Origin: Gaiellales bacterium
GTDB lineage: Bacteria; Actinomycetota; Thermoleophilia; Gaiellales; JAICJC01
Reading direction: 5' to 3'
NCBI GenBank assembly: GCA_038230835.1
Contig: JBBRMM010000008.1
Span: forward strand, 4,721 to 68,720
DNA: 64,000 nucleotides
The notes beneath the pieces are model-generated. The model was not told where the DNA came from. It ran no database searches and saw only the letters and a program-made list of their open reading frames with translations. The position numbers and the translations under genes are program-made. Shown here in pieces: positions 5,991 through 27,648 of this stretch (positions within the stretch are counted from its first letter, which is position 1; the number at the start of each line of letters is the position of its first letter).

Positions 5991-6219
5991 GCCGCAGCTT
6001 CCTCTCCGACAGCCGGCCGTGGCTGAACGGCTTTCCCCCCACTAGGACGATGGGGGCAAACCAGGCGCCAGCGTTTCGGGCCAGCGCGTCGCCCTGGGGC
6101 GTTCGCAGGTCAAGCACCTCGACGCTGAGGGGATAGTCGACGCCGACGCGGTCAAGGACGGTCTTGGCGTGCTGGCAGTGGGCGCAGTCTTCCTGGGTCA
6201 GCAGCGTGATCGCGATCAC
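5959..6219 (-). CDS. Glutaredoxin-like thioredoxin-fold protein (CAHC motif)
   Basis: ORF 5959..6312, trimmed to a GTG that overlaps the upstream stop (GTGA). Sequence VIAITLLTQEDCAHCQHAKTVLD... shows the typical NrdH/Grx-like layout. Confidence 0.7.
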   Translation of the reverse strand: MIAITLLTQEDCAHCQHAKTVLDRVGVDYPLSVEVLDLRTPQGDALARNAGAWFAPIVLVGGKPFSHGRLSERKLRRELDRQASPT

Positions 6220-6908
6220 TGGTGCGTCATCGTCGCGCGCAGATGGGCGAGCAGCTGCGAGTCGGGCACGAACATGGTGTACTTCGGCGCTCCGCCGTAG
6301 TCGGCACGCCACAGGATCTTACCGTCGGCTGCGACCAAGACGAAGGTATGACCATCGCGCGAGTCGCCCATCATGCCGTACTGATTGGCGTTGTAGGTCT
6401 TGGACACGGCCAGGTTCGGGTCAGATAAGACCGGCATCGTCAGGCCTTCGTCCCGGGCTTTCTGGGTGATCTGGTCGAGCGGGTCGCTGGTGATACTGAC
6501 GATCTGTGAGACTCCCAGCGCGCGGTACTTGGCCATGTCCTGTTGGATCACCTTCAGCTGATCCCAGCACGGCTGGCAGGTGAGACCCTCCTGGAAGTAC
6601 AGCAATACCGGCCCCTTGCGTAGGGCGCTTGTCAGGTTGTACGTGCCGCCGCGGGTCGATGGCAGGTTGACCGGCGGCGCCGTCTGCCCCGGCCCGGGTG
6701 TCCCAACGGTGTAGGTGATACCGCCGCCGTTTGAGCTCGAGTTGGAGCTTGATCCGCCTAGCCGGGTGACGCCGTACAGTGCGGCTGCGGCGGCGATGAC
6801 GACCAGCGCGGAGCGCAGCAGCAGCGAGCGCCGTCGGTATTTCGCCTGGTCAGCTTGTAGCGCCGCTTTGCGGGCGCTGCCAGTCGGGTGGGGAGTGGTC
6901 TTGCTCAC
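6216..6908 (-). CDS. Membrane-anchored redoxin/AhpC-TSA family thiol-disulfide oxidoreductase (CQPC)
   Basis: 230-aa ORF with an N-terminal TM, a Ser/Gly linker and a thioredoxin fold: VLLYFQEGLTCQPCWDQL. Confidence 0.8.
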   Translation of the reverse strand: MSKTTPHPTGSARKAALQADQAKYRRRSLLLRSALVVIAAAAALYGVTRLGGSSSNSSSNGGGITYTVGTPGPGQTAPPVNLPSTRGGTYNLTSALRKGPVLLYFQEGLTCQPCWDQLKVIQQDMAKYRALGVSQIVSITSDPLDQITQKARDEGLTMPVLSDPNLAVSKTYNANQYGMMGDSRDGHTFVLVAADGKILWRADYGGAPKYTMFVPDSQLLAHLRATMTHQ

Positions 6909-7800
6909 CTGGATCCTCCGGAGGCTGGTTTTGGGGTGGGTCGTCGGGTGTTGAGGCTTGGTTGAGCGCGATCCATGCCAAGCCGGTGAGCGCGGCTACG
7001 ACCGCGGCGGCGCTCAACCAGCCGGGGGCGTCGCCGGCCCAGACGGTCGCGATGTGCGCGTAGTGCTGCAGTTGGGCCGAGAGCGACGCCTGCCAGCCGC
7101 TGCTTTTCATCGATTTTCCCTGCGCGGCGATGACCAGGGTGAAGATTCCCATGCCGACCAGGATTCCGCCGGACAGAAGCGCCGTTGAGTGCACGCTGGC
7201 GCCGCGTTTGCCGACGTGGAGGCGTACGCTGCGACCGCGCAGGAGCCGGCTCTCGCCCCAGTTGAATCTATCCCACATCAGCGCCAATACGAACATCGGA
7301 AACACCATCCCAAACACGTATGCAACGCCGATCGCGAGCGCGACTATGTATGAGCCCGACAGGCCGGAGAGGGCGATCACGCCGGCCAGCACCGGCGCGC
7401 AGCAGGAGCTAGCAACGCCGGAGAAGAGGCCGAGGCCATACACCGCGGCCGGGCCGCGGCCACTCGCAGGGCGCATCCCGGGCATCGGCAGAGCCAGCTT
7501 CCCACCGGCCAGCGTGAACACGCCCAAGCCGAGCATCATCACGGCTCCGGCGCCGAAGATCAGGGTGTGATGTGCCTGTACCACCGAACCGATCCCGGCT
7601 GCGCCGAGAGCGACGGGAAGGATGATGGTGGCCACGCCCGCCGCGAACACGAACGTCATCAGCACCAATCGCAGGCGGCGGCCGAAGCTGGTCGCGAAGT
7701 AGGCCGGCAGCATGACCGAGACGCAGCATGGCGCGAACAGGGCGACCATCCCGCCCAGGAACGAGGCGAACAGTGTCGTCCCGGTGATGAGCCCGCTCAC
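6850..7800 (-). CDS. CcdA/DsbD_2-like polytopic membrane thiol reductase with two Cys-Cys pairs
   Basis: 316-aa ORF with multiple TM helices. Motifs LFAPCCVSVMLPAY and GVASSCCAPVLAG. Confidence 0.8.
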   Translation of the reverse strand: MSGLITGTTLFASFLGGMVALFAPCCVSVMLPAYFATSFGRRLRLVLMTFVFAAGVATIILPVALGAAGIGSVVQAHHTLIFGAGAVMMLGLGVFTLAGGKLALPMPGMRPASGRGPAAVYGLGLFSGVASSCCAPVLAGVIALSGLSGSYIVALAIGVAYVFGMVFPMFVLALMWDRFNWGESRLLRGRSVRLHVGKRGASVHSTALLSGGILVGMGIFTLVIAAQGKSMKSSGWQASLSAQLQHYAHIATVWAGDAPGWLSAAAVVAALTGLAWIALNQASTPDDPPQNQPPEDPGEQDHSPPDWQRPQSGATS

Positions 7801-7830
7801 CGAGACGCGCTCGCGTCGGCTCGGGCACGG

Positions 7831-8406
7831 CTAGGCACTCGCACTCGCAGCTGCGCGCGCCTTGCCGCCGCAACCGTCGACCAGCCCGATCAGGTACGCG
7901 AGCGGCCGGGCGTGCCATCCCCGCCGCGCGATCAGGTAGTCACTCATGCCCTGAAACGCGGTCCACCGCCAACAGTGGCAGCAGCACGGCCCCATCTCGG
8001 GCGACATCCGCATCGCCGCGTCATAGGTCACCTGCTGGGATCCGGTGAGGGCGATCCCGTCGTGGTATCCGACCAACTCCTGCGCGAGGGAGACAGGGAT
8101 GTCGTAGGGGTCGTCGGGGATCTGCGGGATCGCTGCGTACTTCGTTAGGCTGCCAACTTGGGCGTTGTAGGCCGCCTCGTCCATCGCTGAGCAGCACGAT
8201 CCCTGCAGTCGCATGGCGGGGGAGTACGCCGCCAGTTGGAGTGCCTGTGGGCCACAGCTGTTTGTGTGCTGGGCGGCGAGGGTCGCGAAGGATGGGCCAC
8301 TTCCCACGGAGCGCCAACCATTGGACGACCCGGCGTGCACGAGAAGCGCTCCGGCGACGATCGCCGTTTCGGTCAGGATGCAGATGACGAGCAACCGTGG
8401 ATTCAT
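7831..8406 (-). CDS. Cys-rich membrane-anchored hypothetical protein (CCCHCWRW motif)
   Basis: ORF 7831..8484, trimmed to MNPRLLVICIL (TM). Motifs seen: SCGPQ, GSCCSAMDE, GPCCCHCWRW, DGCGG. Confidence 0.6.
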   Translation of the reverse strand: MNPRLLVICILTETAIVAGALLVHAGSSNGWRSVGSGPSFATLAAQHTNSCGPQALQLAAYSPAMRLQGSCCSAMDEAAYNAQVGSLTKYAAIPQIPDDPYDIPVSLAQELVGYHDGIALTGSQQVTYDAAMRMSPEMGPCCCHCWRWTAFQGMSDYLIARRGWHARPLAYLIGLVDGCGGKARAAASASA

Positions 8407-8419
8407 CACATGGGCTGGG

Positions 8420-8644
8420 CTAGGCCAGGGAGTCGGTGGGCTGCTCGGCGGCGGCTTGATCGATGCGCCGGTTGATCTCCTCACCGAGAGCGATCTGGCG
8501 CCGACGAAGATCCGCAGCTTCGTTACGGCCCGCGCGCGGCGGACAACAGAGCATGCTTCTGCCGCGCCTGCGACCGAGCGGCATCATCGCCGGACAGATC
8601 AATGCCGAGACCGCTACCAGGCCGATCAGTAGGGCATCGTTCAT
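8420..8644 (-). CDS. Small membrane protein with a CP/MM motif TM helix plus charged coiled tail (DUF2933-like)
   Basis: 74-aa ORF: MNDALLIGLVAVSALICPAMMPLGRRRG...LCCPP.... ATGA-type overlap with the upstream paralogue. Confidence 0.5.
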   Translation of the reverse strand: MNDALLIGLVAVSALICPAMMPLGRRRGRSMLCCPPRAGRNEAADLRRRQIALGEEINRRIDQAAAEQPTDSLA

Positions 8645-8889
8645 CGCTCGGCTGGTGTCCGATCCGTGTTCTGGGGGCGTCGTTCGAGCTGTTCGATCTG
8701 CTCGGCGAGGCGCGCGTGCTCGGCCTTGAGGTCGGCGACACTCGTCGCTTCGGGGCTGCTTGGCGTTGGGCCCTCACGCTTCTGTCTGCCGCCCCGCATC
8801 ATGAAGAACATCATCAGTCCCATACCGACGGGGCATGCAAGAAGGAGCAGCGGGGTGAACGCGGTCGCGGTGGAAAGTAGCGGGGCCAT
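8641..8889 (-). CDS. Small membrane protein with a CP/Met-rich TM helix plus coiled-coil tail (DUF2933-like)
   Basis: 82-aa ORF: ...LLLLACPVGMGLMMFFMMRGG... followed by ADLKAEHARLAEQIEQLERR. Confidence 0.55.
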   Translation of the reverse strand: MAPLLSTATAFTPLLLLACPVGMGLMMFFMMRGGRQKREGPTPSSPEATSVADLKAEHARLAEQIEQLERRPQNTDRTPAER

Positions 8890-8988
8890 TTTGCGGTCCT
8901 TTCAAGGGCACGTCCTCAGAGGGATCTACGACTCAACTGTAGCAGCGATCAGACCAGAGGCAATCCCCCGCCCCGCCAGGTCGGGCGC

Positions 8989-10005
8989 CTACGCGGGCGA
9001 GAAGCCGCGGCGGATGGCGCCGCACACGCGGCGGCCCAGCATGAGCGCGACCACATTCGCAGAGGTGATCAACGCCATGCCCAGCAGGCCGTGAACCGTC
9101 GGTGACAAAAGCATCTGCAGGATCGCATGGCCCGAAGCGGCGTCGTTTGTGGCTGGCGCGTCGCTGACCGCCCAAGCTACCAAGCCGCACTCGGCGATCA
9201 TCACCACCGCCGTTAGGGTCAGGCGGGCGCTTGAGAGGGGTGGCAGCGCAACGGGTTTGCCGAGCAGCGCATCGACGCGGAGGTTGAGCGTCCCGTCGCC
9301 AAACGACACTGTCCCGGCCGGGCCGGGGGCGCTGACGGTGAGCAGCGCCGAGCCGAAGGCACGGGATCCGACCCGATCGATTGCCGCCCGATCGGCCGCG
9401 AGTTCCTTCCTCACGAAGTAGCGGTCGCGGAGATCGGCCGCCAACGGGAGCCAGAAGAATGCGCTACTGGCGCATCGCGCGAACAGCATCCACGCTGGGT
9501 CATACACTCGCGCATGTTCGGCCTCATGGGCGACAACCGCTGCCAGCTCGCCTTCCGACAGCACGTCGATCAACGCCGAGGTGACGATGATCCTGCGGCG
9601 AAGCAGTCCCCAGCAAAAGCTGGTAGGCGCCTCGGCCGGGATGGCGCACACGATCCTCGGATCGGCGCCGGCCTGCTCGCACGCCGCCGCGAGCCGGCTT
9701 GACGTCTCGGCCAGCGCGAGCAGCGGCCTGACTGCCAGGCGGGTGCGAAGCATCTGCCTCGATACGCTCCAAAGCCCACGGGTCGCCGCCAGGCCAAGCA
9801 GCGCAACGGCAATCAACGCCGGCGCCGGTGCGGACAGGGCGAGCGTGAGCAGCGCGTAGCAGGCGGCGAACGCGCCGATCAACGCCAGTACGGCCTGCCA
9901 CGTCGCGGCCGTCCCGACCACCACAAGCACGACTGCAGGCAACCCGGCACCCGCGAAGAGCAGGCACACAAGGGGGGCGAGGTCGCGACTTGGCCGCTCA
10001 CGCAT
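8989..10005 (-). CDS. M56-family (BlaR1-like) membrane zinc metalloprotease without a penicillin-binding sensor domain
   Basis: ORF 8989..10209, trimmed to MRERPS, which overlaps the blaI stop by 8 nt (ATGCGTGA). HEAEH (HExxH) and several TM helices are present. Confidence 0.8.
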   Translation of the reverse strand: MRERPSRDLAPLVCLLFAGAGLPAVVLVVVGTAATWQAVLALIGAFAACYALLTLALSAPAPALIAVALLGLAATRGLWSVSRQMLRTRLAVRPLLALAETSSRLAAACEQAGADPRIVCAIPAEAPTSFCWGLLRRRIIVTSALIDVLSEGELAAVVAHEAEHARVYDPAWMLFARCASSAFFWLPLAADLRDRYFVRKELAADRAAIDRVGSRAFGSALLTVSAPGPAGTVSFGDGTLNLRVDALLGKPVALPPLSSARLTLTAVVMIAECGLVAWAVSDAPATNDAASGHAILQMLLSPTVHGLLGMALITSANVVALMLGRRVCGAIRRGFSPA

Positions 10006-10465
10006 CGCTGACTCGCTTTCGCAACTCTGCCGTGCGGGCGGGGTCGAGGTCGTCGGCTGCCTCCACGATCCGGGCAAGCGCGACATCGCCGAAGTCGGCG
10101 ACCAGGCGACCGAGCAGCGAGCCGGCAAGCTCGGAGACAAAGTCGTCGCGGCTCTTCGTTGGCTGGTAGCGATAGCCGCGGCCCTCGTGCTCGCGGGCGA
10201 GCAGGCCACGTTCGTGCAGCCGCACCATCATCGTCATCACCGTCGTATAGGCGACCTTCCCAGGCATCTGCTCGAGCACCTCGCGCACCGTGCCAGTGCC
10301 TCGTTTCCACAGGATCGACATGACGGTGGCCTGCTGGTCGCCGAGGTACTTGGCGACCGGATCGCCTGAGCCGAAGTCGGACCGCGGGTAGCGACGGTAG
10401 TTGGGCACCGCTCCTAGTATCGCATCCACGTGCGAGGATCGATCTCGGTCGTAGTCCTCAGTCAA
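9998..10465 (-). CDS. BlaI/MecI/CopY-family winged-helix repressor
   Basis: 155-aa ORF with ...VMSILWKRGTGTVREVLEQMPGKVAYTTVMTMMVRLHERGLLAREHEGRGYRYQPT.... Confidence 0.85.
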   Translation of the reverse strand: MTEDYDRDRSSHVDAILGAVPNYRRYPRSDFGSGDPVAKYLGDQQATVMSILWKRGTGTVREVLEQMPGKVAYTTVMTMMVRLHERGLLAREHEGRGYRYQPTKSRDDFVSELAGSLLGRLVADFGDVALARIVEAADDLDPARTAELRKRVSDA

Positions 10466-10931
10466 GGCGTTCCATGTCCGCGTCGATCCGCGCCGCGAGC
10501 GCGGGATCGGGCGCAGAGGGCTCCCCGCCTATCGCGGTGGCGCCGCGGCGGTGCGACCATTGCCACGCTAGGCCGAGGACGATCCCAGCGCCACCCAGGA
10601 GGAGGAGGCTGGGCACGAGCCAGGCCAGCATGTCGAACCCCTGAAACGGCGGTGCCGCCAGGATCCGAGTGCCGAATCGGTCGATCAACGCCTGCTTGGT
10701 GCGCTGCTCGCTCCAACCGGCGTCGTGACGCTGTTGGACGAAGCTTCGGATGTCCTGCGCAGCTTGAGAGTCCGACTGGTCAAGCGGCACGTGGCAAGTG
10801 GGGCACATCAACTGACTCTCAAGATCCTGCGGCGACCAGCCATGATTCGCCGCCTCCGCCGCCGGATTGACAAGGATGAAGACACCGGCCGCGATGAGCA
10901 CGATTCTGACTGCAAGCGCGAAGCGCGTCAT
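10458..10931 (-). CDS. CcmH/NrfF/CycL-like protein (CPTC motif) with C-terminal TM
   Basis: 157-aa ORF with a signal peptide, LESQLMCPTCHVPLDQSDS, ...ILAAPPF.. and a TM helix. No other Ccm genes are nearby. Confidence 0.8.
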   Translation of the reverse strand: MTRFALAVRIVLIAAGVFILVNPAAEAANHGWSPQDLESQLMCPTCHVPLDQSDSQAAQDIRSFVQQRHDAGWSEQRTKQALIDRFGTRILAAPPFQGFDMLAWLVPSLLLLGGAGIVLGLAWQWSHRRGATAIGGEPSAPDPALAARIDADMERLD

Positions 10932-11530
10932 CCGCCTGCCTTGCGGATCCCGTCGGCGAGACTGGTGTCGCTTACCGTGCCTGGGTCGTGCGCCACGATC
11001 CGACCTTGGCGGTCGATGTAGTACGTCTCGGGAACGCCGGTCAGCCCGTAGTTCTCATAGGTCGAGTTGGACTTATCCCACACCGCGGTGTAGGTGACGC
11101 CGTAGCGGCGCAGAAAGCCGATCGCGTCGCCGCGTAGATCCTGCACGTCGACGCCGATGAACACGACGCGCGGGTTGCTCGCCGCGGCGTCGACCAGCAG
11201 CCTGGCCTCGGCGCGACACGCGACACACCAACTGGCCCAGAAGTTCAGCACCACCGGATGCCCACGCAGCCCGCCGAGATCGAGCCCACCGTTGCCGATC
11301 GCCTGTGCGACAGCCGGAGAGGGTGAGCCGCTGGGTGGCCAGAACAATTCAAGCTTGAACAGGGGCGCGGCCGGCTTATTCCCCGCCGCGATCTCCGAGA
11401 CCAGCGTGCCTCCCTGCGAGGACTTGACCAGACCGTAGGCAAACAGCGCCATCACCCCAACGACAGCGACCACGCCGCCAAGCGGGACGAACCACCTCAG
11501 ACCGCGCCAAACTCTCGTCATGGCGCCCAC
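10928..11530 (-). CDS. TlpA/ResA/CcmG-like membrane-anchored thioredoxin
   Basis: 200-aa ORF with an N-terminal TM and VVLNFWASWCVACRAE. Confidence 0.85.
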   Translation of the reverse strand: MGAMTRVWRGLRWFVPLGGVVAVVGVMALFAYGLVKSSQGGTLVSEIAAGNKPAAPLFKLELFWPPSGSPSPAVAQAIGNGGLDLGGLRGHPVVLNFWASWCVACRAEARLLVDAAASNPRVVFIGVDVQDLRGDAIGFLRRYGVTYTAVWDKSNSTYENYGLTGVPETYYIDRQGRIVAHDPGTVSDTSLADGIRKAGG

Positions 11531-11609
11531 CCGGTCGGGTGGTCGGCGATCTGATCGCTCGCTTGGACCGAGGGCAGCGCCGACCTTGGCGATTGGGGTC
11601 TGCTCGGGC

Positions 11610-12344
11610 TCAAAGGTTCGACCACCAGTCGAGATGCAGGCGCTCCAGCAGGTGCTGGGCGTAGATGTTCACGATGTAGAGCTGATTGGTCGCAAGCAGG
11701 TAGCCCATGACGATCAGAACCAGGCCCGCGAACCCCTGGAATCCACGGTAGAAGCGGCGCAAGAAGCGGAAGCTGCGCATCGCCTTGGTGAAGCCCAGCG
11801 AGACGAGCAGAAACGGGGCGGCCAAACCGAGGCCGTACACCAGCAGCAGCAGCACGCCTTGGGCCAGCGTCAGCTTCGCGCCCGCCAGCACGAGGATGCT
11901 TCCCAACACCGGTCCAATGCATGGCGTCCAGCAGAACGCGAACGCAACGCCAAGCGCGACCGGCCCGCCACGCGACACCGCGAGCCGCTGCACCGCCACG
12001 CCAGCCGAGCCGATACCAAGCCCCGACAGGGCGATGTCACCGACCATCAACACACCCATCGCCGCCACGAACCCACCAGCGACGACGTTGAACTGGTCGC
12101 GGTGCACGGCAAGCGTCGAGCCAAGCGCGCTTGCGCTCGCCCCCAGGGCCATGAATACCGCGAGGAATCCGACCAAGAAGAACAGACTCGGCACCAGTGC
12201 CCGGCGACCGCTCTGCTGCGCCGCTAGGTTGCCGCCGACGACCGCCGACACATAGCCCGGCACAAGCGGCAGCACGCACGGGCTCAGGAACGACACGAAC
12301 CCGGCCGCGAACGCCAAAGGAAGAAACACCCCACCGACCCGCAT
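11610..12344 (-). CDS. ccdA: CcdA cytochrome-c-biogenesis-type membrane thiol reductase
   Basis: ORF 11610..12410, trimmed to MRVGGVF, which overlaps the upstream stop. Motifs FLSPCVLPLVPGY and FCWTPCIGPVLG. Confidence 0.85.
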   Translation of the reverse strand: MRVGGVFLPLAFAAGFVSFLSPCVLPLVPGYVSAVVGGNLAAQQSGRRALVPSLFFLVGFLAVFMALGASASALGSTLAVHRDQFNVVAGGFVAAMGVLMVGDIALSGLGIGSAGVAVQRLAVSRGGPVALGVAFAFCWTPCIGPVLGSILVLAGAKLTLAQGVLLLLVYGLGLAAPFLLVSLGFTKAMRSFRFLRRFYRGFQGFAGLVLIVMGYLLATNQLYIVNIYAQHLLERLHLDWWSNL

Positions 12345-12922
12345 CACCCCTCCACCTCCACCAACGCGCGATCGAGCGACGCGACAGTCCGCGGCCCAAG
12401 CAGCCGCCACGCGATCCGCCCCTCACGGTCGATCACGAACGTCGTCGGAAGGCCGATGATCCGGTAGCGATCGGCGATCGTCCGGCTCGGATCAGCCACG
12501 ACCGAGTACCGCACGCCGAACACGTGCATAAACCGAAGCGCGGCCCTGCGCGGATCGTTGACATCGATGCCGATCAACACCGCACTGCGCGGATCCAGCG
12601 TCCTCGCGAAGCGCACCAGTTGGGGCGCCTCCTGTCTGCACGGATGACACCAACTCGCCCAGAAGTTGAGAAACACGACCCGTCCCCGATAGGCGCTTAA
12701 CGCCCCTGGACGGCCCTGCAGCGGGTGGCCGCCACGAAGCGACGGCGCCACATGCCGAGCAGCCGCCGGGACGACTGCGTTCGCACGCGCCGGAGCGGAC
12801 GGGGAGCTCCGCAGCAGCCCGCCGGTCATCACGACAGCTGCAGCCAGAAATGCGAGACCCCAGGCGACGCGTCGTATGACGACGAGCCGACCCGCGGCCG
12901 AAGCGATCCTCCCAGTGGACAC
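12344..12922 (-). CDS. TlpA/ResA-like membrane-anchored thioredoxin
   Basis: 192-aa ORF with a TM helix and VVFLNFWASWCHPCRQE. Confidence 0.85.
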   Translation of the reverse strand: MSTGRIASAAGRLVVIRRVAWGLAFLAAAVVMTGGLLRSSPSAPARANAVVPAAARHVAPSLRGGHPLQGRPGALSAYRGRVVFLNFWASWCHPCRQEAPQLVRFARTLDPRSAVLIGIDVNDPRRAALRFMHVFGVRYSVVADPSRTIADRYRIIGLPTTFVIDREGRIAWRLLGPRTVASLDRALVEVEG

Positions 12923-13126
12923 CGACGCAGCGTACCGCAGCTACTACGCACCAGTAATAGAACCGCCACACCGTCGGCGCCGTTCCGCCATCCCGTGGCC
13001 GACGCTCTCAGCACACCCCGCTGATCGACTCGCGAATCGACTCGCTCCCGAGACCGATCCACCGGTCCGAACCAGAGCCGACGCCGGCTCGACCGCGAGT
13101 GGAGAACGCACGTACACTGGTCGCCA

Positions 13127-13631
13127 ATGCAGCACCGTGATTTCCTACTCTCCTCGGTTGTCGTTGCCCTAGGCTGGGGCGGCGCCGCCTGCGGAGGCGG
13201 TGAGTCCAAACCCGTGTCCGCCGGTGATCTGCCGCGCGATTCTCCAAGTACCCGGTGGTGGGCGAGCCCAACGGCGACCTAACCAAGGTCGTCTGGCCCT
13301 CCTTCGTCACCGACGCCCCACCCGAGGTGAAGACCCTCTATGAGTTCCAAATCACCCACGGCGACCTGATGAAGTACATGCCCTGCTACTGCGGCTGCGG
13401 CCAGCGAAGCGGCCACAAGAGCAACCGCGACTGCTACGTCCAGAAAGTCAACCCCGACGGCAGCGTCGTACTCGACTCGATGGCCCCACCTGAGACGTCT
13501 GCATGGGCGTCACCCGTGAGGTGATGAAGCTGAACGCGCAAGGGATGACACCGCGGCGAATTCGCGCCGCCATCGACGACTACACCGACCTGATCGACCA
13601 GGCGACGCCGACGCCATACCCGCCGGCATGA
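13127..13631 (+). pseudogene. PCYCGC-motif lipoprotein gene broken by two -1 frame changes and carrying TGA at the expected first Cys of its CxxC
   Basis: Three consecutive frames. Frame 2 (from 13127): MQHRDFLLSSVVVALGWGGAACGGGE..., a lipoprotein-like signal. Frame 1 (track ORF 13255..13524): ...MKYMPCYCGCGQRSGHKSNRDCY...VVLDSMAP. Frame 3 (from 13494): DVCMGVTREVMKLNAQGMTPRRIRAAIDDY...PYPPA, stopping at 13629-13631. In frame 3, TGA at 13491-13493 directly precedes DVC. Confidence 0.65.
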
Positions 13632-13857
13632 CCGCCGACCGAGGCCGAAATCGCGTACGCGCCGCGGGGCGCGGCGGCTGACGGCCCGCTCCGCCGCGGT
13701 CTTAGGTGGGACTTCCACGCGACGAACGGTACCCACCCCGTGCGGTTCGTTGTCCCAGGACAGGCCCCTCGGCGGGTTGGTCGCGCATGAGCTCTACCGG
13801 CGCGGCGCCGGGGATCGGCGGCACGGCGCCACGGTGCCCGGCGGTCATATAGCCTTC

Positions 13858-14265
13858 ATGGCTGTGAAGACATCAACCGAGAGGGTGGTGCCGCTTGACC
13901 GCTGCCAGGTCAGGTGCGTGGACGCCGAGCGCGTCGCTTCGGTGCGTGAGCGCCTGCCCGACGAGCGCGTCAGCCAAGACCTGGCGGAGACCTTCCGGGT
14001 GCTTTCCGATCCCGGCCGGGTACGGCTAATCGTGGCGCTGATTGAGGGCGGCGAGCTGTGCGTGTGCGATCTAGCGGCCGTGACCGGACTTTCCGAGACG
14101 GCCTGCTCGCATAACCTACGCTTGCTGCGCTCGAGCCGACTCGTCCGCTATCGAAAGCAGGGCCGAAACGTCTACTACACGCTGGACGATGCCCACATCC
14201 GGCTGCTGTTGGACGTCGGCTTGCAGCACGTGACCCACGATGAGTCGGGACGGATCGGTGGCTGA
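13858..14265 (+). CDS. ArsR/SmtB-family metalloregulator
   Basis: ORF 13750..14265, trimmed to MAVKTST. Sequence ...RVLSDPGRVRLIVALIEGGELCVCDLAAVTGLSETACSHNLRLLRSSRLVRYRKQGRNVYYTL. Confidence 0.85.
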   Translation: MAVKTSTERVVPLDRCQVRCVDAERVASVRERLPDERVSQDLAETFRVLSDPGRVRLIVALIEGGELCVCDLAAVTGLSETACSHNLRLLRSSRLVRYRKQGRNVYYTLDDAHIRLLLDVGLQHVTHDESGRIGG

Positions 14266-14995
14266 ACCCACCGCGGCACCGACACGGGCGACGCGATTGC
14301 CGATGGCAGCGGTCCCGGGCCGGCCGGATTCCGACGCCGAGGAACGCGCGGCGCTGCAGCGCCGCGCGCGCTGGTTGGCTATCGGTGGGAATGCTTGGCA
14401 TGTGGTCGAGTTTGCGATCGCCGTGGCCGCTGGTGTCGCGGCCGGTTCGATCGCCCTGGTCGCGTTTGGCCTCGACAGTCTGATCGAGGTCGCTGCCGGG
14501 ACTGTGATTGTGTGGCTGTTCACTGGGCGACGTCTTAGTGATCCGGCGCGAGCCGAGCGTCGCGCCCAACAGTTGATCGCTTTCTCATTCTTCCTCCTCG
14601 CGGGCTATGTGGCGGTGGAGAGCGGGCGCACGCTGCTTGGCGGGCAGCATCCCGACACGAGCTGGGTCGGGATCGGGCTGGCCGCGATCACGGCGCCGAC
14701 GATGCCACTTTTGGCGCGGGCGAAGCGACGAATCGGCGAGCGGCTTGGCTCCAGCGCGACCGTCTCGGAGGGCCAACAGAACATGGTCTGCGCCTACCTC
14801 TCGGTCGCGCTTCTCGTCGGGCTGGGAGCCAACGCGCTGCTGGGCTGGTGGTGGGCCGACCCGACCGCCGCGCTCGTGATCGCTACGGTCGCTGCCCGGG
14901 AAGGGCGTGAGAGCTGGAAGGGCGAGAGCTGCGGCTGCTGTGCCCCAGCCCTGGGAGCGGCAGAGAGCGGCTGCGGCGATGGGGGTTGCTCGTGA
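14240..14995 (+). CDS. Cation-efflux-like membrane transporter (TM domain only) with Cys-rich C-terminus
   Basis: 251-aa ORF with CDF-like TM helices (IALVAFGLDSLIEV...). The tail is ESCGCCAPALGAAESGCGDGGCS. Exact start is uncertain because it overlaps the arsR end. Confidence 0.7.
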   Translation: MSRDGSVAEPTAAPTRATRLPMAAVPGRPDSDAEERAALQRRARWLAIGGNAWHVVEFAIAVAAGVAAGSIALVAFGLDSLIEVAAGTVIVWLFTGRRLSDPARAERRAQQLIAFSFFLLAGYVAVESGRTLLGGQHPDTSWVGIGLAAITAPTMPLLARAKRRIGERLGSSATVSEGQQNMVCAYLSVALLVGLGANALLGWWWADPTAALVIATVAAREGRESWKGESCGCCAPALGAAESGCGDGGCS

Positions 14996-15972
14996 GCGGC
15001 CACCGCGACCACTCGGATGGGCACGACCATTCTCATGGCGTCAGCCCCGATGCCAACCAGCGCCAACTCGCGATCGCTCTTGGCCTGATTGTCGTCTTCA
15101 TGGCCATCGAGATCGTCGTCGGCCTGATCGCCCACTCCCTCGCGTTGCTCTCAGACGCTGGTCACATGCTGACCGACGCCGGCGCGATCGGACTGTCGCT
15201 TTGGACGGCACGACTCGCCTTGCGCCCGGCCAAGGGCACGATGACGTTCGGCCTCAAGCGCGCTGAGATCCTCAGCGCACAGGCCAACGGCATGACGCTC
15301 CTTGTCCTGGCCGTGCTGATCGTAGTTGAGGCGATCCGGCGCATGTTCGCGCCACCCACCGTCGACGCCAAACTGATTCTCGCCATCGCCCTGATCGGCA
15401 TCGTCGTCAACATCGCCGCCACCTGGACGCTGGCCAAGGCCAACCGCCAAAGCCTCAACGTCGAAGGCAGCTTCCAGCACATCCTTACCGACCTCTACGC
15501 GTTCATCGGCACCGCCATCGCCGCCGCCATCATCCTCATCTGGGGCTTCCAGCGCGCCGACCCAGTCGCATCCCTACTCGTCGCTGGGCTGATGCTACGA
15601 GCCGCCTACGGCTTACTGCGGGACTCAGGCCGGATCTTCCTTGAGATGGCACCGAAAGGGATCAACCCCGAAGCAGTCAACGACACGCTCAACACATACC
15701 CCGGCGTAGTTGAGGTGCGTGACCTGCACGTGTGGGAGATCACCTCCGGCATGCCCTCCCTCTCCGCGCAGGTCTTCGTCGGCAGGCAGGTCGACTGCCA
15801 CGCCACCTGCCATGCGCTCAAACACCTGCTCGATGACCGCTTCGGTATCGACCATTCCACGCTTGAGGTCGAACACCAAAATACCAACCAGCCAGCCCGC
15901 GGCTGGGAGTGCGAAGGTACACCCGCCAGCCCTTCCGATTCCCAAGCTGCCCACACGCACCACCACGAATGA
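14986..15972 (+). CDS. czcD: Cation diffusion facilitator, CzcD/ZitB-type
   Basis: 328-aa ORF with a His-rich N-terminus (HRDHSDGHDHSHG), HSLALLSDAGHMLTDA, and a C-terminal cytoplasmic domain. Confidence 0.9.
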   Translation: MLVSGHRDHSDGHDHSHGVSPDANQRQLAIALGLIVVFMAIEIVVGLIAHSLALLSDAGHMLTDAGAIGLSLWTARLALRPAKGTMTFGLKRAEILSAQANGMTLLVLAVLIVVEAIRRMFAPPTVDAKLILAIALIGIVVNIAATWTLAKANRQSLNVEGSFQHILTDLYAFIGTAIAAAIILIWGFQRADPVASLLVAGLMLRAAYGLLRDSGRIFLEMAPKGINPEAVNDTLNTYPGVVEVRDLHVWEITSGMPSLSAQVFVGRQVDCHATCHALKHLLDDRFGIDHSTLEVEHQNTNQPARGWECEGTPASPSDSQAAHTHHHE

Positions 15973-16108
15973 CCCCTAGCGGGCCGGGTGCCTGCCCTCA
16001 AACCGCGCGCAGTATCAGCAATCGGCAAGGCACAGTAGAGCGTCGATTCGAACCGCTGGTCGCCCCTGGAGGGCGCATCCTGGGGCGCGACCACCCTACA
16101 TGCCGCCC

Positions 16109-16179
16109 GGTTGAGCCGAACCGATCCTGTCTTCAAAATCGGCAGGCGCATGTAACCGATGCGTTGGTAGGTTCGGCTC
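16109..16179. repeat. Structured intergenic repeat, copy A
   Basis: GGTTGAGCCGAACCGATCCTGTCTTCAAAATCGGCAGGCGCATGTAACCGATGCGTTGGTAGGTTCGGCTC. A 10-bp closing stem (GAGCCGAACC/GGTTCGGCTC) encloses two hairpins. Shares blocks with copies at 22285 and 27140. Confidence 0.5.
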
Positions 16180-16406
16180 TTGCGCCGCTCCGTTGGTGTT
16201 TCCGCATCGCTAGGCGGGTTCGGTGCGACCGTCGCGGTGGCGGAGGGCGTGGTCGTTGTCTGCGGTGCCGAGGATTCGGAGGTGACTACTGGAGCTGTGC
16301 GCTGATCGGGCCTGCCGGTTGTTGCGACGGGTGGTGTCGACGTTTGCGCTCCGCGCCATTGGAGCCGGGCCGTCACGATCCGGGGGTTGCTGGCGGGCTT
16401 CCTGGG

Positions 16407-17630
16407 TCAGCTCGGAGGCCCGCCCATTGGGATATGGCGGAACATCTTCCAGAAGCCGAGGTCGTAGGCGGTTTTGATCGCGCCGGCGATGAGGAAGGGG
16501 GCGCCGATGAGTGAGGCTTGGACGAGGGCGCCGGTGAGGAGTGGGCTGATGGGGCGAACGGCGTAGCGGGCGCTGTTGGTGTAAGCGGCTGCGGCTGTAC
16601 GTTCGGCGGGGGTGACCACGGCGGCGACGTATGCCTGGCGTGGTGGGACGTCCATCTGGGAAAGCGCGAACCGCCCGAGTAGGAGCGCGACGGCCGCTGG
16701 GAGATTCGGGGCGAGTGGTATGGCGGCGAGCAGCAGGTTGGAGGGTAGGTGGGTGAAGACCATGGTTGGGAGCGGTCCGATGCGTTGGCTGAGTCGCACG
16801 GCGGCTTGGAAGGACGCGGCTTGGAGGATGCCGATGGCGAAGAAGACCAGGCCGATCAGTTCGGGGGAGGCGCCGTAGCGGCGGGCGAGGTAGTAGGCGA
16901 TGTAGGCGTTGACGACGAAGCCGCCGCCGAAGCTGTCCAGCGCGAACAGGCCGGCCAGCCGCTTGACCATCGGCCGCGACCGCTCGAGGGTTGGGTGGGT
17001 TCGGCCGGTGTGTTCCTCGCCGCGTTCGATGCTCGGTGAGAGGCGAGTGGCGATCGGCAGCGCGGCCAGGGCGACGATGGGGTAGACGAGCAGCAGTCGC
17101 TGATCGCTGCCTGCGATGAATGTGAGCAGCGCGGCGAGGGCGGCGCCCAGTGAGCCGGCGAGGGTGGCGACGGTGTTGTAGCGGCCGAACAGACGCGTGG
17201 GATCACCAGAGACGGTGTGTGGCAGCATCGCCTGTTCGAGCGAGGTGAAGGGGCCGGACTCAACGACGTCGGGTGAGACTGTGCCGGTCAGCGCGGCCAG
17301 AACGAGCAGCGGCGGCCACGACGTGAGCGCAAAGGCGGCGCCGGCGCCCGCCATCAAGAGGAGCAGGGCAACGTAGCAGCGGCGACGGCCGACACGGTCG
17401 CCGTAGCGGCCGAGCAGCAGCGAGGCGACCGCGCTTCCGACCAGCAGGCTCGCCAACACCGCCCCAACGGCGATCCCGGACAGGCCGGCTTGGTTGAGGG
17501 TGACGCCGATCAGGACGCTGCCGGCGCCGTAGGCGACGGCGCGAAGCGCCTGGACGCGGATGATCAGTCGCGCATCGCGGGTCAGGCTGATGCGGCTCCC
17601 ACCTGCTCGCCTACCTGGTGTTTGCACCAT
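16407..17630 (-). CDS. MFS transporter
   Basis: 407-aa ORF with about 12 TM helices and an MFS loop motif LGRYGDRVGRRR. Confidence 0.8.
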   Translation of the reverse strand: MVQTPGRRAGGSRISLTRDARLIIRVQALRAVAYGAGSVLIGVTLNQAGLSGIAVGAVLASLLVGSAVASLLLGRYGDRVGRRRCYVALLLLMAGAGAAFALTSWPPLLVLAALTGTVSPDVVESGPFTSLEQAMLPHTVSGDPTRLFGRYNTVATLAGSLGAALAALLTFIAGSDQRLLLVYPIVALAALPIATRLSPSIERGEEHTGRTHPTLERSRPMVKRLAGLFALDSFGGGFVVNAYIAYYLARRYGASPELIGLVFFAIGILQAASFQAAVRLSQRIGPLPTMVFTHLPSNLLLAAIPLAPNLPAAVALLLGRFALSQMDVPPRQAYVAAVVTPAERTAAAAYTNSARYAVRPISPLLTGALVQASLIGAPFLIAGAIKTAYDLGFWKMFRHIPMGGPPS

Positions 17631-18050: not shown

Positions 18051-19259
18051 TTAGGCGAGAATAAGACCGGCAATGCCGGCGGCAACAACGACGTACGGCT
18101 CCTTGACGTTAAAGCGCCACAGCACAGCAAGCGCGATGCCGTACACGAGAATGGTTTTCCAGTCGACGATCGCGCCGCGAGCAAGCACGTAGCTGGCGCC
18201 TGCGATGGCGCCGACAGCGGCGGCCGTCGCGCCCTTGACGAAGCCCTGCACGCGGCGATTCTTCTGGTGTCGAACAAACCAACGGCCGGGAATCACGACG
18301 AAGAAGAACACCGGCAGAAAGATCGCGACCGTGGCGATCACGGCGCCGCTCATCTCGCCGGCGAGGTAGCCGACGAAGGTCGACATGATCACCACGGGGC
18401 CGGGGGAAATCAGTCCCATCGCGACGGCGTCGAGGAACTGGCGCTCGGTCACCCAGTGATACGAGTCGACCACGCCGTGGTGCATGAACGGGATGATCGC
18501 CAGCCCCGAGCCAAAGGTGAACGCGCCCGCTTCGACGAAGAACGCCGCCAAACCGACCGAGCCAGTCAGTGCAAGACCACCGGTCAGCCCGCCCGCCAGT
18601 ACAGGGAGCGGCACGACCGATACGGCACCTCGGCGCAGCCAGTCCGGGATGCCGCCCCCGTAGACGATCGTACCGAAGAGTCCGGCGACGATGAACAGCG
18701 GCGCGATCTCGGCACCTGCGATGGCGGTGATCAGGCCCAGGATCAGTGCGATCGTCCACAGGATGGGGTCGCGCTTGTTGGTGGTTCGGGCGAGCTTGAT
18801 CGCCGCCAAGGTGATGATCGCGATCGCCGCCGGGCCAATGCCGTAGAACAGCTTGTGCACCACTGATAATCCCTGGTAGTGCGCGTAGACGACGGCGACG
18901 GCCAGCACGAACAGGAACGCCGGTCCGATGAACACCAGCGACACCAAAAGCGCGCCCACCCAGCCGCGGCGGATGTAGCCCAGCCACATCGCAAGTTGGG
19001 CTGCCAGCGGGCCGGGCATCGTCTGAGCCAGCGCGAGGCCGTTGAGATACTCGCTCTCGGTGTACCAGCCGCGCCGCTCGACGAGGTCGCGCTGCATGTA
19101 GCCCGCCAAGGCGATCGGCCCACCGAATCCGAGCGCCCCGAGTCGAAGGAAATATCGAACGATCGCCGCGAAGTCCGGCGCCGCATGCTCGGCCGGTTCG
19201 GTCGTTTCGGGGATCCCATTGAGCTGCGGGTTACTCGTCGACATAGACGGCCGCTCCAC
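18051..19259 (-). CDS. chrA: Chromate ion transporter
   Basis: 402-aa ORF with LGALGFGGPIALAGYMQRDLVERRGW... and a duplicated CHR domain architecture. Confidence 0.9.
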   Translation of the reverse strand: MERPSMSTSNPQLNGIPETTEPAEHAAPDFAAIVRYFLRLGALGFGGPIALAGYMQRDLVERRGWYTESEYLNGLALAQTMPGPLAAQLAMWLGYIRRGWVGALLVSLVFIGPAFLFVLAVAVVYAHYQGLSVVHKLFYGIGPAAIAIITLAAIKLARTTNKRDPILWTIALILGLITAIAGAEIAPLFIVAGLFGTIVYGGGIPDWLRRGAVSVVPLPVLAGGLTGGLALTGSVGLAAFFVEAGAFTFGSGLAIIPFMHHGVVDSYHWVTERQFLDAVAMGLISPGPVVIMSTFVGYLAGEMSGAVIATVAIFLPVFFFVVIPGRWFVRHQKNRRVQGFVKGATAAAVGAIAGASYVLARGAIVDWKTILVYGIALAVLWRFNVKEPYVVVAAGIAGLILA

Positions 19260-20136
19260 TGCTGGATGGTTGAAACACGTACAGCGCGCGTTCGGATTGA
19301 TTCCACGCCGTCGTGTGCGCGCCCGATTCGGTCATCACGGTTTCGAGGTGGGCGAGCTCTGCGGTGTCGAACACGCTGACGCACCCTGGATCGCCAACCG
19401 CGACGTACAGCCGCGCCCGTTCGGGGTCGTGCCAGACGACGTCGGGCACCCCCGGCAGTGGCAGGGTCGCCTCGACGAGGCCGGAGTCCGCGTCGAGCAC
19501 GACCACCGCTCCACCGTCCGCCGCGCAGTACAGCCGCTGTCCGTCGAAGGCCAGGCCGTGCGGCCCATCCACCGGCACGTCCAACGCTCGGTCGACCTGC
19601 AGCGTCGCGGCGTTCAACGCGAGGATCTGCGCTGGGCTGCTGATATTCGCAAAGACGACATCGCGCGTCGCGTCGTACGTCGCCCATCGCGGTCGCCCCG
19701 GAAGCGGGGCGGTATCGACAACCCTCGCCGAGTCGACATCAACGATCGACAGCGTCGGATCGTGTCCGGGCGGGTGACCCAGATTGAGCACGAACAAGTG
19801 GCGTCGCGCCTTGTCGAATGCGAGCCCATTTGGATGCGCGCCAACGCCGACGCGCGCGACGAGTTCCTCATCGTCACACCGCCACATCGAAACGCGCGCG
19901 CAGCCGCGATCCGAGGAGAACAGCAGGTCATGCTCGTGGTCGATGAGCACGCCCGCCACGCCGGGCAGCTGCTCGAGTGATCGCAGATAGCTCCGCGATG
20001 CGCAGTCGAGCACGTCGATGCGATCCGCCCCGGTGTGTGCGACGTAGATGCGCTCACCGCGATAGCAGTCCGCATGATCGAACCCCGGCTCGCGCCCCGG
20101 AGGCACCGCGATGAATCCCCTCCGAGTCAGCGCCAT
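19231..20136 (-). CDS. YVTN/YncE-like beta-propeller protein
   Basis: ORF 19231..20223, trimmed to MALTRRGF. Repetitive blades are visible (..RIYVAH..DRIDVLD.., ..HLFVLNLG.., ..RLYCAADGGAVVVLD.., ..RLYVAVGDPGCVSVFD..). Confidence 0.7.
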   Translation of the reverse strand: MALTRRGFIAVPPGREPGFDHADCYRGERIYVAHTGADRIDVLDCASRSYLRSLEQLPGVAGVLIDHEHDLLFSSDRGCARVSMWRCDDEELVARVGVGAHPNGLAFDKARRHLFVLNLGHPPGHDPTLSIVDVDSARVVDTAPLPGRPRWATYDATRDVVFANISSPAQILALNAATLQVDRALDVPVDGPHGLAFDGQRLYCAADGGAVVVLDADSGLVEATLPLPGVPDVVWHDPERARLYVAVGDPGCVSVFDTAELAHLETVMTESGAHTTAWNQSERALYVFQPSSSGAAVYVDE

Positions 20137-20164
20137 GAGCACACCCCTGCGATACCTGGTCGTT

Positions 20165-20599
20165 TCACGCGGGCTCCCGCCCGAGCAACAGCGCGCGCCT
20201 GCGATATTCGTACAGTCCGTCAAACAGCGGGGCCGACCATGCCAGCATCTGCTCGTCGTCCCCAGAGATCATCGAGAGGCCGCGGAGCAGGATGTCAAGG
20301 CCCGGCCCCTCAGGCGCGTCGTAGCGCTCGTCAGCCAGATCGGCCTCATGAATCGCACGGCCGATCTCCACGAGCGCCGGATCGTCGAGCTCGTACCGAC
20401 GCAGAAACGCCTCGAAGCTACATTCGCCGCTGTGGTGGCCGAGCTCGACGCCGCGCATGTCAAAGGGTATGGCATAGGTGGGGACGTCGTCTGGATCGTC
20501 CACGAACACGAACTCCGCGTCCTGATCAACGAAGCGGCGGATCAGCCACGCGCAGGCCGCACGATCCACGTGGCAGTTCTTGCGCGTCGCCCATTTCAT
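20165..20599 (-). CDS. ChrB C-terminal-domain protein
   Basis: 144-aa ORF: MKWATRKNCHVDRAACAWLIRRFVDQDAEFVFV.... ATGA overlap with the ChrB-N gene upstream. Confidence 0.75.
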   Translation of the reverse strand: MKWATRKNCHVDRAACAWLIRRFVDQDAEFVFVDDPDDVPTYAIPFDMRGVELGHHSGECSFEAFLRRYELDDPALVEIGRAIHEADLADERYDAPEGPGLDILLRGLSMISGDDEQMLAWSAPLFDGLYEYRRRALLLGREPA

Positions 20600-21069
20600 G
20601 CCGCCGCCTCCACCGCGTTCGCGAGCCTCTCCACCGCGTCACTCGCAAGCTCGCGCTCCACCGGCGGGAAGTAGTCGCGCGAACCGATCCGTCGAAGCTC
20701 GCGACGCAGGCGCGCCAGCGTCCGACGCTGCTCAGACGGTGACCTGCCGACACCCCCCGCCGCCGCATCGATCACCGAGCGGTACTCCTCCGCGATCGCG
20801 GCCGCCATCTGCCCGGCCAACGCGCGCTCCTGAGCCGCCGACGCTGCCTCAGCCAGCCACAGCGTCGCCACGCCCCCGGCATCGGCCACCTCGTCAGCCA
20901 ACCACTCCATCTGCTCGCGCGTGCGGGCGTCGAGCGGCAGCGCCACCAACCCGTCCGTCAGCTGCACCACGCCCAATCGTCGCAGCTGCCGCCACACCGC
21001 GATCCGCGGCGTCGACGGCTCACGCGGCAGCCGGTACGCCAAGAACACCCATCGGATCCGCCCACTCAC
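20596..21069 (-). CDS. ChrB N-terminal-domain protein (split chrB)
   Basis: 157-aa ORF with a GTG start: ...WVFLAYRLPREPSTPRIAVWRQLRRLGVVQLTDGLVALP.... Confidence 0.7.
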   Translation of the reverse strand: MSGRIRWVFLAYRLPREPSTPRIAVWRQLRRLGVVQLTDGLVALPLDARTREQMEWLADEVADAGGVATLWLAEAASAAQERALAGQMAAAIAEEYRSVIDAAAGGVGRSPSEQRRTLARLRRELRRIGSRDYFPPVERELASDAVERLANAVEAAA

Positions 21070-23485: not shown

Positions 23486-24280
23486 TCACGTAGCCGATGG
23501 CTTGGTGGCTTTGATGGTCGCGCCGCGGGCGCCGTACTTCTCTGCCTTCTGGCGGGTGTCGTGGAATGCCGAGTGGGCGTAGGTGTCGATCAGGTCGCCG
23601 GTCTCGATGTCTGTGAATCCGTGGCGCAGTAGGCGGCTCTCGTACTCTGCTTCCAGCAGAGCTCCTGCGATTCAACCGGCCCACAGGTCGATGTCTCGCC
23701 TTCCCTCGTCAGAGACCGGGTGGTGGATGGTGACGTCGGCCAGTTGGATGCGGCCGCCGGGTCGCAGCACGCGGACGATCTCGGAAAAGACGGCGTCCTT
23801 GTCGGGGATCAGGTCGATGACGCCGTTTGAGATCACGACATCGAAGCTTGCGTCGGCGAACGGCAGCTGCTCGGCGCTGCCCTGGACGATCGTGACGGTG
23901 TCGAGTCCTATCTCGGCGGCTGACCGGCGTGCTTTGGCGGTCATCTCGGGGGTCATGTCGATGCCGGTCACCGAGCCGGTTGGGCCGACCATCTGCGCTG
24001 CGATGAGTGTGTCCAGGCCGGCGCCGCAGCCGACGTCCAGTACATCCTCACCGGCGCCTAGCGATCCGAGCACGAAGGGGTTTGCGACTCCGGCGAACGA
24101 CTCGCGGGACGTCTCAGGGATGCGCGCCAGCAGATCGGCGGGGTAGTCGAGATCCTGCGCCCAGGCGCGGCCGGTGGGGAACATGAAGTCGCGGTCCGGC
24201 TCGCGCGACACCGCCGCGTAGGTGCGCTGGATCTCCGAGCGCAAAAGCTCGACATCCAGCCCCTCCACCTCTACCGCCAT
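23486..24280 (-). CDS. ArsM/UbiE-like SAM methyltransferase read through an in-frame TGA (23672-23674): candidate selenoprotein (264 codons, putative Sec at 203)
   Basis: Track ORF 23672..24280 has VLDVGCGAGLD and VISNGVIDL and ends ...DIDLWAG-TGA. The same frame continues for 61 stop-free codons, IAGALLEAEYESRLLRHGFTDIE...ATIKATKPSAT, matching the ArsM GC(I/V)AGAL... C-terminal domain. The extension has no start codon of its own. Confidence 0.6.
23645..23661 (-). promoter_or_regulatory. SECIS-like hairpin downstream of the in-frame TGA
   Basis: On the coding strand, CTCTGCT-GGA-AGCAGAG forms a perfect 7-bp stem starting 11 nt after the TGA, with G residues in the apical loop. Confidence 0.4.
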
Positions 24281-27347: not shown

Positions 27348-27648
27348 TCGATCGCTTACGCTCGACAGGCCCGCACTACTTCGATGTTAGCAAGCAACTA
27401 TCAGCCACATCGACGGTTTCCTCCTGAAGGGCGACTTCCTTGACGGGATTATGCGATCGTTACGGTGGCGGCTGGGGAGTAGCCTGTTTGGCCGCCCGCG
27501 GTGCGGCGGTAGCGCGCGCGAAACTGCCATGTGCCTTTGGCGAGCGTCGTTGAGGTTGACGTGGTGGTCTGGTCGACTCGGATTCCACCATCGCGGGCGT
27601 AAGATCCTCTTGTCGCAATTCGCAGGGTACCGGCCGAAGGAGCGTCAC

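Follow-up and report, generated by a model that had tools for sequence, protein, structure and literature searches.

Selenocysteine (Sec, U) is already catalogued in the PCYCGC family (PF13798), which a table in a 2026 review lists as the selenoprotein 'CYCXC/OS_HP4' with a UxxC motif, citing Zhang & Gladyshev 2007 (PMC13188914); the main text of the latter names OS_HP1-3 only. NCBIfam curates the family as NF041379, 'OS_HP4_CYCXC, CYCXC family (seleno)protein', with an equivalog cut-off of 90 bits, and one other paper names PCYCGC as a bacterial protein, namely a Cys-type lipoprotein of unknown function from Parageobacillus (PMC13068155). Here we describe a PF13798 (PCYCGC/CYCXC) lipoprotein gene from a Gaiellales bacterium, located at positions 13127-13631 (+ strand, 505 bp) of a 64,000-nt stretch of contig JBBRMM010000008.1 (hereafter the window), which is split across three reading frames and carries an in-frame TGA. 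With high confidence, we read it as a genuine but recently inactivated pseudogene of this known selenoprotein family, in which the TGA is the family's Sec codon and whose ancestor would have been a lipoprotein exported by twin-arginine translocation (Tat) and bearing UxxC.

The lipoprotein branch to which the window gene belongs is a sister of the curated NF041379 model and not a new selenoprotein family. Against this model the window protein scores 51.3 bits, with residues 67-151 matching profile positions 14-87 of 90; its intact orthologue L083 scores 50.5 bits, the isolate locus L078 64.9 bits, and a Sporosarcina Cys form 72 bits. More generally, intact Sec-type relatives reach 50-65 bits and Cys-type lipoproteins 52-72 bits. 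Since all of these values fall below the cut-off, the window protein and its relatives are homologues, not equivalogs, of NF041379. Homology extends over the whole core and includes the same CYCxC motif and the same Sec position in UxxC, whereas the curated model comprises about 90 amino acids without a lipoprotein leader and the window copy is frameshifted. The Cys-containing PCYCGC lipoproteins of Bacillales (Parageobacillus thermoglucosidasius AOT13_14730, PMC13068155; Sporosarcina, Paenibacillus and Psychrobacillus, L027-L082) share the Pfam family, the lipobox cysteine, the same conserved cysteines and the C-terminal ...TPxP tail, but have TGC or TGT in place of TGA, lack the downstream hairpin discussed below, and possess a Sec-type, not a twin-arginine, export signal; at the one such locus examined (L037, Sporosarcina), the neighbours are unrelated to metal or redoxin genes. 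The exported UxxC oxidoreductase selenoproteins of the DsbA/TlpA-like type (PF13098/PF00578, PMC13188914) are likewise extracytoplasmic, display UxxC at a helix start, and show a genomic link to CcdA/DsbD-type electron export. The PCYCGC protein differs from them in having no thioredoxin fold and in four extra conserved Cys and a His, which suggest a metal site over a simple dithiol.

A preliminary description of the window, made from its sequence alone, had claimed that the gene reassembles only from three frames, and the coordinates and sequences given there all match. Segment 1 (13127-13230) provides the start codon, a degenerate Tat signal (Q-H-R-D-F-L), the putative lipobox Cys codon (13190-13192) and a linker, and translates from 13127 as MQHRDFLLSSVVVALGWGGAAC... 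Segment 2 (13231-13483) encodes the PF13798 core, ARFSKYPV...EPNGDL...PCYCGC...H...RDC...DSMA; the core is carried by the open reading frame (ORF) 13255-13524, the PCYCGC motif itself occupies 13381-13398, and the segment shares 94% amino-acid identity with L083 over 86 residues (tblastn). The third frame reads T-TGA-DVCMGVTREV...TPTPYPPA, with the TGA at 13491-13493, and segment 3 (13494-13631) translates as DVCMGVTREVMKLNAQGMTPRRIRAAIDDY...TPTPYPPA before the stop codon at 13629-13631. The 167-amino-acid frame-repaired translation matches Pfam PF13798 with 103.9 bits (cut-off 25; E=1e-29; profile positions 42-153 of 153), and a tblastn search with an intact orthologue returned three collinear high-scoring segment pairs in three frames (13127-13231, 13231-13488 and 13482-13601). 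The three-frame gene is real, far beyond chance. In the repaired protein, H96, R100-D101-C102 and U-D-V-C align with invariant columns. The same tblastn search retrieved no second PCYCGC copy in the window.

The TGA at the first position of U-D-V-C was compared with the corresponding codon across the family. A protein search retrieved 326 relatives, and in the gene calls for approximately 100 of the 120 listed the protein ends precisely at ...DSMAPT, while full-length relatives have APT-C-D[IV]-C-LGV at the TGA site. For two of the 'short' proteins, the underlying DNA was inspected: that of L001 contains an in-frame TGA followed by the conserved frame DICLGVTREVIKLNAKGMSPRKIRAAVDAKYGDLIDQATPTPYPPA-stop, and that of L002 an in-frame TGA followed by the conserved frame GICLGVTRDVMRM...TPTPYPPA-stop. 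Among 80 loci from 185,579 species genomes, 33 have TGA at this codon and 47 have TGC or TGT; with the metagenome contigs L001 and L002, the TGA loci total 35. They are found in Actinomycetota (Thermoleophilia, Acidimicrobiia/Ilumatobacteraceae, Rubrobacter), in many Chloroflexota (Thermomicrobiales, Sphaerobacteraceae, Dehalococcoidia), and in four Bacillota, including the isolate Kroppenstedtia guangzhouensis (L078) and a Planifilum, and the TGC/TGT loci in Sporosarcina, Paenibacillus, Psychrobacillus, Rummeliibacillus and others. A few database proteins (P0004, P0015 and P0022) display W at the Sec position, which in P0004 is the TGA translated under another genetic code.

An alternative takes the TGA for a true stop codon or a simple nonsense mutation, without any Sec, in a family that has short and long forms. 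The roughly 100 database proteins called as ending at ...SMAPT would fit such a reading, as would the failure to find Sec machinery in the window, yet in nearly all 35 TGA loci, which span three phyla, an open frame is conserved beyond the TGA as far as ...TPTPYPPA, its residues align with the Cys-form proteins, a covarying hairpin is found only in the TGA forms, and the family is curated as a (seleno)protein. We regard a true stop as very improbable. The pattern by which bacterial selenoproteins are recognized, an in-frame UGA opposite the Cys of homologues with a conserved ORF downstream, is present in the comparison of 35 TGA with 47 TGC/TGT loci, and on this comparative ground the TGA is read as the Sec codon of the PCYCGC family and not as a lesion. 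The preliminary description had placed the TGA opposite the first Cys of a CxxC and proposed a look at TGA versus TGC in relatives; both the residue and the distribution of codons among the loci bear this placement out.

The hairpin noted in the preliminary description, GTCACC-CGTGA-GGTGAT at 13509-13525 (+), proved both conserved and covarying. Its 6-bp stem (GUCACC/GGUGAU, loop CGUGA) begins 15 nt and its loop 21 nt after the UGA. When 34 TGA loci were aligned without gaps (stem columns 31-36 with 42-47), the stem was paired in 99% of cells, and three of its six pairs show compensatory double changes (G-C<->C-G, C-G<->A-U and A-U<->G-C). The covariation score was reached by none of 500 shuffles, and pairing fell to 11-65% when the partner strand was slid. 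Some of the covariation falls at synonymous sites, with Thr ACC accompanying Ala GCG or Glu GAG and Thr ACG accompanying Ala GCC or Asp GAC, and protein constraints therefore do not explain it. Of the 35 TGA loci, 33 form the complete six-pair stem, against an average of 3.4 of six pairs for the 47 Cys loci, and Cys forms that encode the same peptide do so without the full hairpin (L030, ITRDV, 3/6; L041, IARDA, 4/6). The hairpin resembles bacterial Sec insertion sequence (SECIS) elements of the E. coli fdhF type in lying inside the ORF just after the UGA and differs from them in showing no more than a 6-bp stem and no bulged U; it has no match among Rfam families. The bSECISearch rules reportedly ask for a UGA-to-loop distance of 16-37 nt and a G near the start of the apical loop, and the window hairpin fits them, with the loop at 21 nt and G at position 2 of CGUGA. 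Most likely, the conserved hairpin acts as a SelB-binding SECIS.

Some observations pull against a Sec-decoding gene. Folded as a single sequence, the hairpin does not outperform shuffles (z=0.15), and the minimum free energy structure prefers a different, non-conserved hairpin. Since z is near 0, the case for the SECIS is comparative and not thermodynamic, resting on covariation. In addition, neither selA, selB and selD nor tRNA-Sec is present in the 64 kb of the window. As to the preferred fold itself, it is a 7-bp hairpin (13494-13511, +; GACGUCU/GGGCGUC) directly after the UGA that overlaps the 5' arm of the conserved hairpin and, on inspection of the relatives' alignment, is seemingly not conserved.

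Use of Sec by the host is nonetheless probable from a second gene in the same island, for which the preliminary description had already mentioned another case of TGA for Cys. The gene found (23489-24280, -) encodes an ArsM-like S-adenosylmethionine (SAM) methyltransferase with an in-frame TGA (23674-23672) at the conserved Cys of ...DIDLWAG-U-IAGA, and its frame is conserved to the end. It matches the arsenite methyltransferase model NF008823 across the TGA and ArsM selenoprotein models over the first ~227 residues, and an 8-bp hairpin, GCUCUGCU-GGA-AGCAGAGU, follows about 10 nt after the UGA. A Thermoleophilia metagenome-assembled genome (MAG; L003) has TGA at the same ArsM codon. The ArsM-like gene is of a known selenoprotein type (UxxG) and, unlike the PCYCGC gene, appears intact here. 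When the window was scanned for further in-frame TGAs flanked by coding signal, it was the only credible case.

The lesions of the PCYCGC gene were mapped by nucleotide alignment with its closest intact relatives, the metagenome contigs L083, L084, L085 and L086 (78-88% amino-acid identity), joined by L001 for the first break. At this break one base is missing at 13230|13231, with placement ambiguous within about 13230-13235 (~5 nt), where relatives have GA(C/T) CT(C/G) GCC GC(N) CG(N) TTC, encoding D-L-A-A-R-F. The second break shortens a run of five C to the four at 13484-13487; L083, L084 and L086 retain CCCCC, and relatives read ATG GCC CCC ACC TGA GAC (M-A-P-T-U-D). Relative to these three contigs the gene thus has two 1-bp deletions and no uninterrupted reading frame. 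Both positions agree with the preliminary description, which had put a first -1 break within 13228-13279 and had explained a second by a missing C in the CCCC run. Two further differences were absent from it. An in-frame 3-nt deletion at 13578|13579 turns AID-A-K-Y into AIDDY at a place where all relatives keep two residues, and a CGC-to-CAC change at 13133-13135, a codon that is CGN in relatives, converts the conserved twin-arginine stretch M-Q-R-R-[DE]-F-L into Q-H-R-D-F-L. The window consequently does not conform to the twin-arginine motif (S/T-R-R-x-F-L). The RR columns show at least 90% conservation in the Sec-type relatives, and across 42 aligned Sec-type sequences this R-to-H change is the only point at which the window deviates at columns conserved to that level. 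A candidate lipobox, ...ALGWGGAAC with a nearly invariant Cys22, was judged by eye.

Whether these breaks are present in the organism was addressed with independent assemblies. Exact-protein look-ups revealed the same gene in Logan assemblies of two SRA runs: in SRR19962015 (L090/L092), a 20,213-bp contig is 100% identical to the window over 5458-16524, and in SRR24807096 (L093), contigs of 12,861 and 10,406 bp are 100% identical over 11691-16524. Both deletions are present in both assemblies, where the gene is called as the same 89- and 42-amino-acid fragments, and the 89-amino-acid fragment also occurs on an NCBI contig of 133,489 bp. Frame integrity elsewhere in the window was judged by Pfam profile coverage of ~50 ORFs, a frame plot of GC content at third codon positions (GC3) being too noisy. 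Nearly all family matches cover their profiles end to end, the exception being a truncated transposase, and the full-length genes include those for a 795-amino-acid P-type ATPase, a 712-amino-acid CopC-CopD, an 885-amino-acid fusion, UvrC, WhiA, GAPDH, PGK, iPGM and ArgRS. One 505-bp gene broken twice with nothing else broken in 64 kb makes an error process implausible.

The competing explanation, that the organism has an intact gene from which sequencing or assembly dropped two bases, so that the window carries a working selenoprotein gene, draws on the nature of the lesions, both single-base deletions and one of them in a C5 run, and on the little-altered remainder of the gene, in which the TGA and the SECIS survive together with almost every conserved residue and dN/dS (the ratio of nonsynonymous to synonymous substitution rates) is as low as that of intact pairs. 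It is opposed by the identity of the NCBI-derived window to the independent Logan assemblies of two SRA runs and by the lack of any other frameshift among the ~50 ORFs, even though a GC content of 68% should make G/C runs frequent. By our estimate, the chance of two window-wide indel errors both falling in one 505-bp gene is ~0.8%, and the RR-to-HR change and the codon deletion are not indel-type errors. We consider this explanation unlikely. On the same grounds, namely 100% identity of the deletions in two SRA-run assemblies and no other checked gene broken, a pseudogene is to be favoured where the preliminary description had held pseudogene and assembly error equally plausible. The frameshifts are accordingly read as real from the assemblies, and the window copy is not a working selenoprotein gene. 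Against a pseudogene count the pairwise dN/dS of the window versus its relatives, which at 0.06-0.13 is the same as that of intact pairs and gives no positive sign of relaxed selection, and the circumstance that the two SRA runs may share a culture or site, with a systematic error at the C-run being a remote possibility. A dN/dS as low as that of intact pairs implies that the inactivation is recent. Metagenomes were pattern-scanned twice for alleles of the lineage, whether intact or frameshifted; as even the JGI contig of L083 was missed, the absence of matches is uninformative.

It is also conceivable that the broken gene is still expressed by recoding, through two programmed -1 ribosomal slips or transcriptional slippage in addition to Sec insertion. 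At site 2, a slip of tRNA-Pro from CCA to CCC would, judging from the sequence, restore M-A-P-T-U exactly; site 1 (CUG|CCG), however, lacks a slippery sequence, the sole downstream structure is 20 nt away and explained as the SECIS, and RNA-polymerase slippage is known to need a run longer than C4. No close relative has the frameshifts, which are therefore not conserved features. Recoding thus has a vanishingly small probability, and a recently formed pseudogene is retained as the reading of the locus.

Loss of the gene is seen elsewhere as well. At the closest genome locus (L003 451-849; Thermoleophilia MAG JAICYJ010000049.1), the gene breaks off after ...TREV, where unrelated sequence takes over, with the TGA and five of six hairpin pairs retained; the junction lies ~500 bp from an ArsR-rhodanese/metallo-beta-lactamase/MFS/ArsM block. 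P0020 is frameshifted at a different site, after ...CYVQK. Judging from these sequences, the PCYCGC gene decays independently in the close relatives L003 and P0020.

Features of export and fold were examined across the family. Actinobacterial and Chloroflexota members have the RR motif and an A-A-C lipobox, which mark a Tat lipoprotein, and Bacillota members have an ordinary lipoprotein signal. In an AlphaFold model of a Cys-type relative, the predicted local distance difference test (pLDDT) score averages 82 and exceeds 90 over most of the mature domain, and the Sec-equivalent Cys132 lies immediately before helix 133-147. A PDB sequence search with the PCYCGC protein gave no match, and Foldseek of the AlphaFold model against PDB gave nothing below E=3.5; a likeness to the CcmH N-domain in the same comparison (E=4) was rejected as insignificant.

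Positions 1 to ~31,100 of the window form a metal-resistance island that ends at a tRNA-Leu gene (31119-31202) and contains a Cu-type ATPase, CopCD, two CcdA/redoxin sets, BlaI/BlaR-like genes, CDF transporters, ChrA/ChrB, the ArsM-type selenoprotein gene, an ArsR-rhodanese and the truncated transposase; beyond it lies the actinobacterial core uvrC-yvcK-whiA-gap-pgk-tpi. Divergent from the PCYCGC gene (10928-12922, -) are its putative partner genes, identified by Pfam: a TlpA-like redoxin (12344-12922), CcdA/DsbD_TM (11610-12410) and a second TlpA-like redoxin (10928-11530), giving the order TlpA-like redoxin - CcdA - TlpA-like redoxin - CcmH. Directly downstream is an ArsR-family regulator (13750-14265, +; Pfam HTH_5), whose true start is probably after the TTG at 13750, and an ArsR-type gene also adjoins PCYCGC in L001. 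CcdA and redoxin genes neighbour the PCYCGC gene in the window, L001, L002, L088 and L078. The gene order is DsbD_TM - Redoxin - Redoxin - ArsR - PCYCGC in L001, CopCD ... DsbD_TM - Redoxin - PCYCGC in L002, DsbD_TM ... Redoxin - PCYCGC - CsoR - ArsP/YHS in a close Cys-type relative, and HMA-ATPase - regulator - PCYCGC(TGA) - Redoxin in Kroppenstedtia.

Several other loci of the island were noted. The truncated DDE transposase (30211-31202 region; 273 amino acids, profile positions 3-236 of 435) lies directly beside the tRNA-Leu(CAG) gene, and the two are the boundary between the metal island (1 to ~31 kb, lower GC3) and the core chromosome. At 27451-30108 (+), downstream of the ArsR-rhodanese regulator (26364-27029), a single 885-amino-acid ORF combines metallo-beta-lactamase, rhodanese, sulfite-oxidase-type molybdopterin and dimerization domains; together with the regulator it looks like a sulfur/persulfide-handling module within the island. 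ChrB (20100-21069, -), upstream of ChrA (18051-19259), is present as two ORFs overlapping by ATGA at ~20596, the N-terminal one matching ChrB_N and the C-terminal one read by eye only. A frameshifted ChrB was rejected, given this overlap and the separate N- and C-terminal halves, and the arrangement looks like a natural split with translational coupling. Beside CopCD, a second redox set (5960-8484, -) comprises a glutaredoxin-like ORF (CAHC), a CQPC redoxin (6216-6908), a CcdA-like membrane protein (6850-7800) and a 217-amino-acid protein with a GPCCCHCWRW motif (7831-8484), the last two without a Pfam match.

From these data, the ancestral gene may be pictured as encoding a ~168-amino-acid lipoprotein with the twin-arginine signal M-Q-R-R-[DE]-F-L...A-A-C, anchored on the outer face of the membrane, whose folded domain would carry PCYCGC...H...RDC and, further on, U-x-x-C. 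The UGA would be read as Sec, with the hairpin 15 nt downstream serving as the putative SelB-binding SECIS. The resulting selenol/thiol pair would be kept reduced by the products of the neighbouring CcdA -> TlpA-like electron-export genes, and its target, for binding or reduction, would be a thiophilic metal, with copper the likeliest. In the window copy, four changes mark the gene as dead. The first 1-bp deletion uncouples the signal peptide from the core, and the C5-to-C4 deletion, 4 nt before the UGA, separates UxxC and the C-terminal helices from that core; in addition, the Tat motif has lost one arginine and the C-terminal region one codon. The persistence of the family's strong purifying-selection signature, the Sec codon and the SECIS indicates a recent inactivation.

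The metal role is proposed from the neighbouring genes, which are P-type ATPases, CopCD, ArsR regulators and redoxins for Sec-type copies and CsoR for one close Cys-type copy. On this gene context, an extracytoplasmic selenol/thiol site that a CcdA/TlpA chain keeps reduced, and that binds or reduces a metal of this kind, copper above all, is a proposal in which we place roughly even confidence. A broader one is tentative: the PF13798 lipoprotein branch, which occurs in aerobic Actinomycetota and Chloroflexota of soils, there with a Tat signal, and in some Bacillota, might be a distinct, largely mis-annotated extracytoplasmic selenoprotein that, within mobile islands for copper/metal resistance, accepts electrons at the end of a CcdA -> TlpA export chain through its selenol/thiol pair. 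The proposed metal function is weakened by the lack of a solved relative of the PCYCGC fold among the PDB searches and by a CcdA/TlpA association detected in only ~9 of 33 Sec-type loci in an insensitive tblastn screen, whose neighbour counts are lower bounds because it misses the Pfam-annotated redoxin in L088.

The known picture of Sec usage is unchanged, because the family was already catalogued, and the window case is well explained and modestly new. For annotation, the gene is better labelled a selenoprotein pseudogene than two hypothetical ORFs. Misreading of the Sec codon leaves most database entries of the branch (~100 of the 120 clusters listed) either ending at ...SMAPT or with a spurious W, and the comparative set yields a clean, covariation-supported SECIS and Sec/Cys pair across three phyla. 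Together with these data, the recurring link to CcdA/TlpA and metal-efflux genes makes a testable functional hypothesis. If the branch were indeed such a terminal acceptor, it would represent a new extracytoplasmic role for Sec in lineages not usually thought to be rich in selenoproteins, and the window copy would be a snapshot of such a gene being lost.

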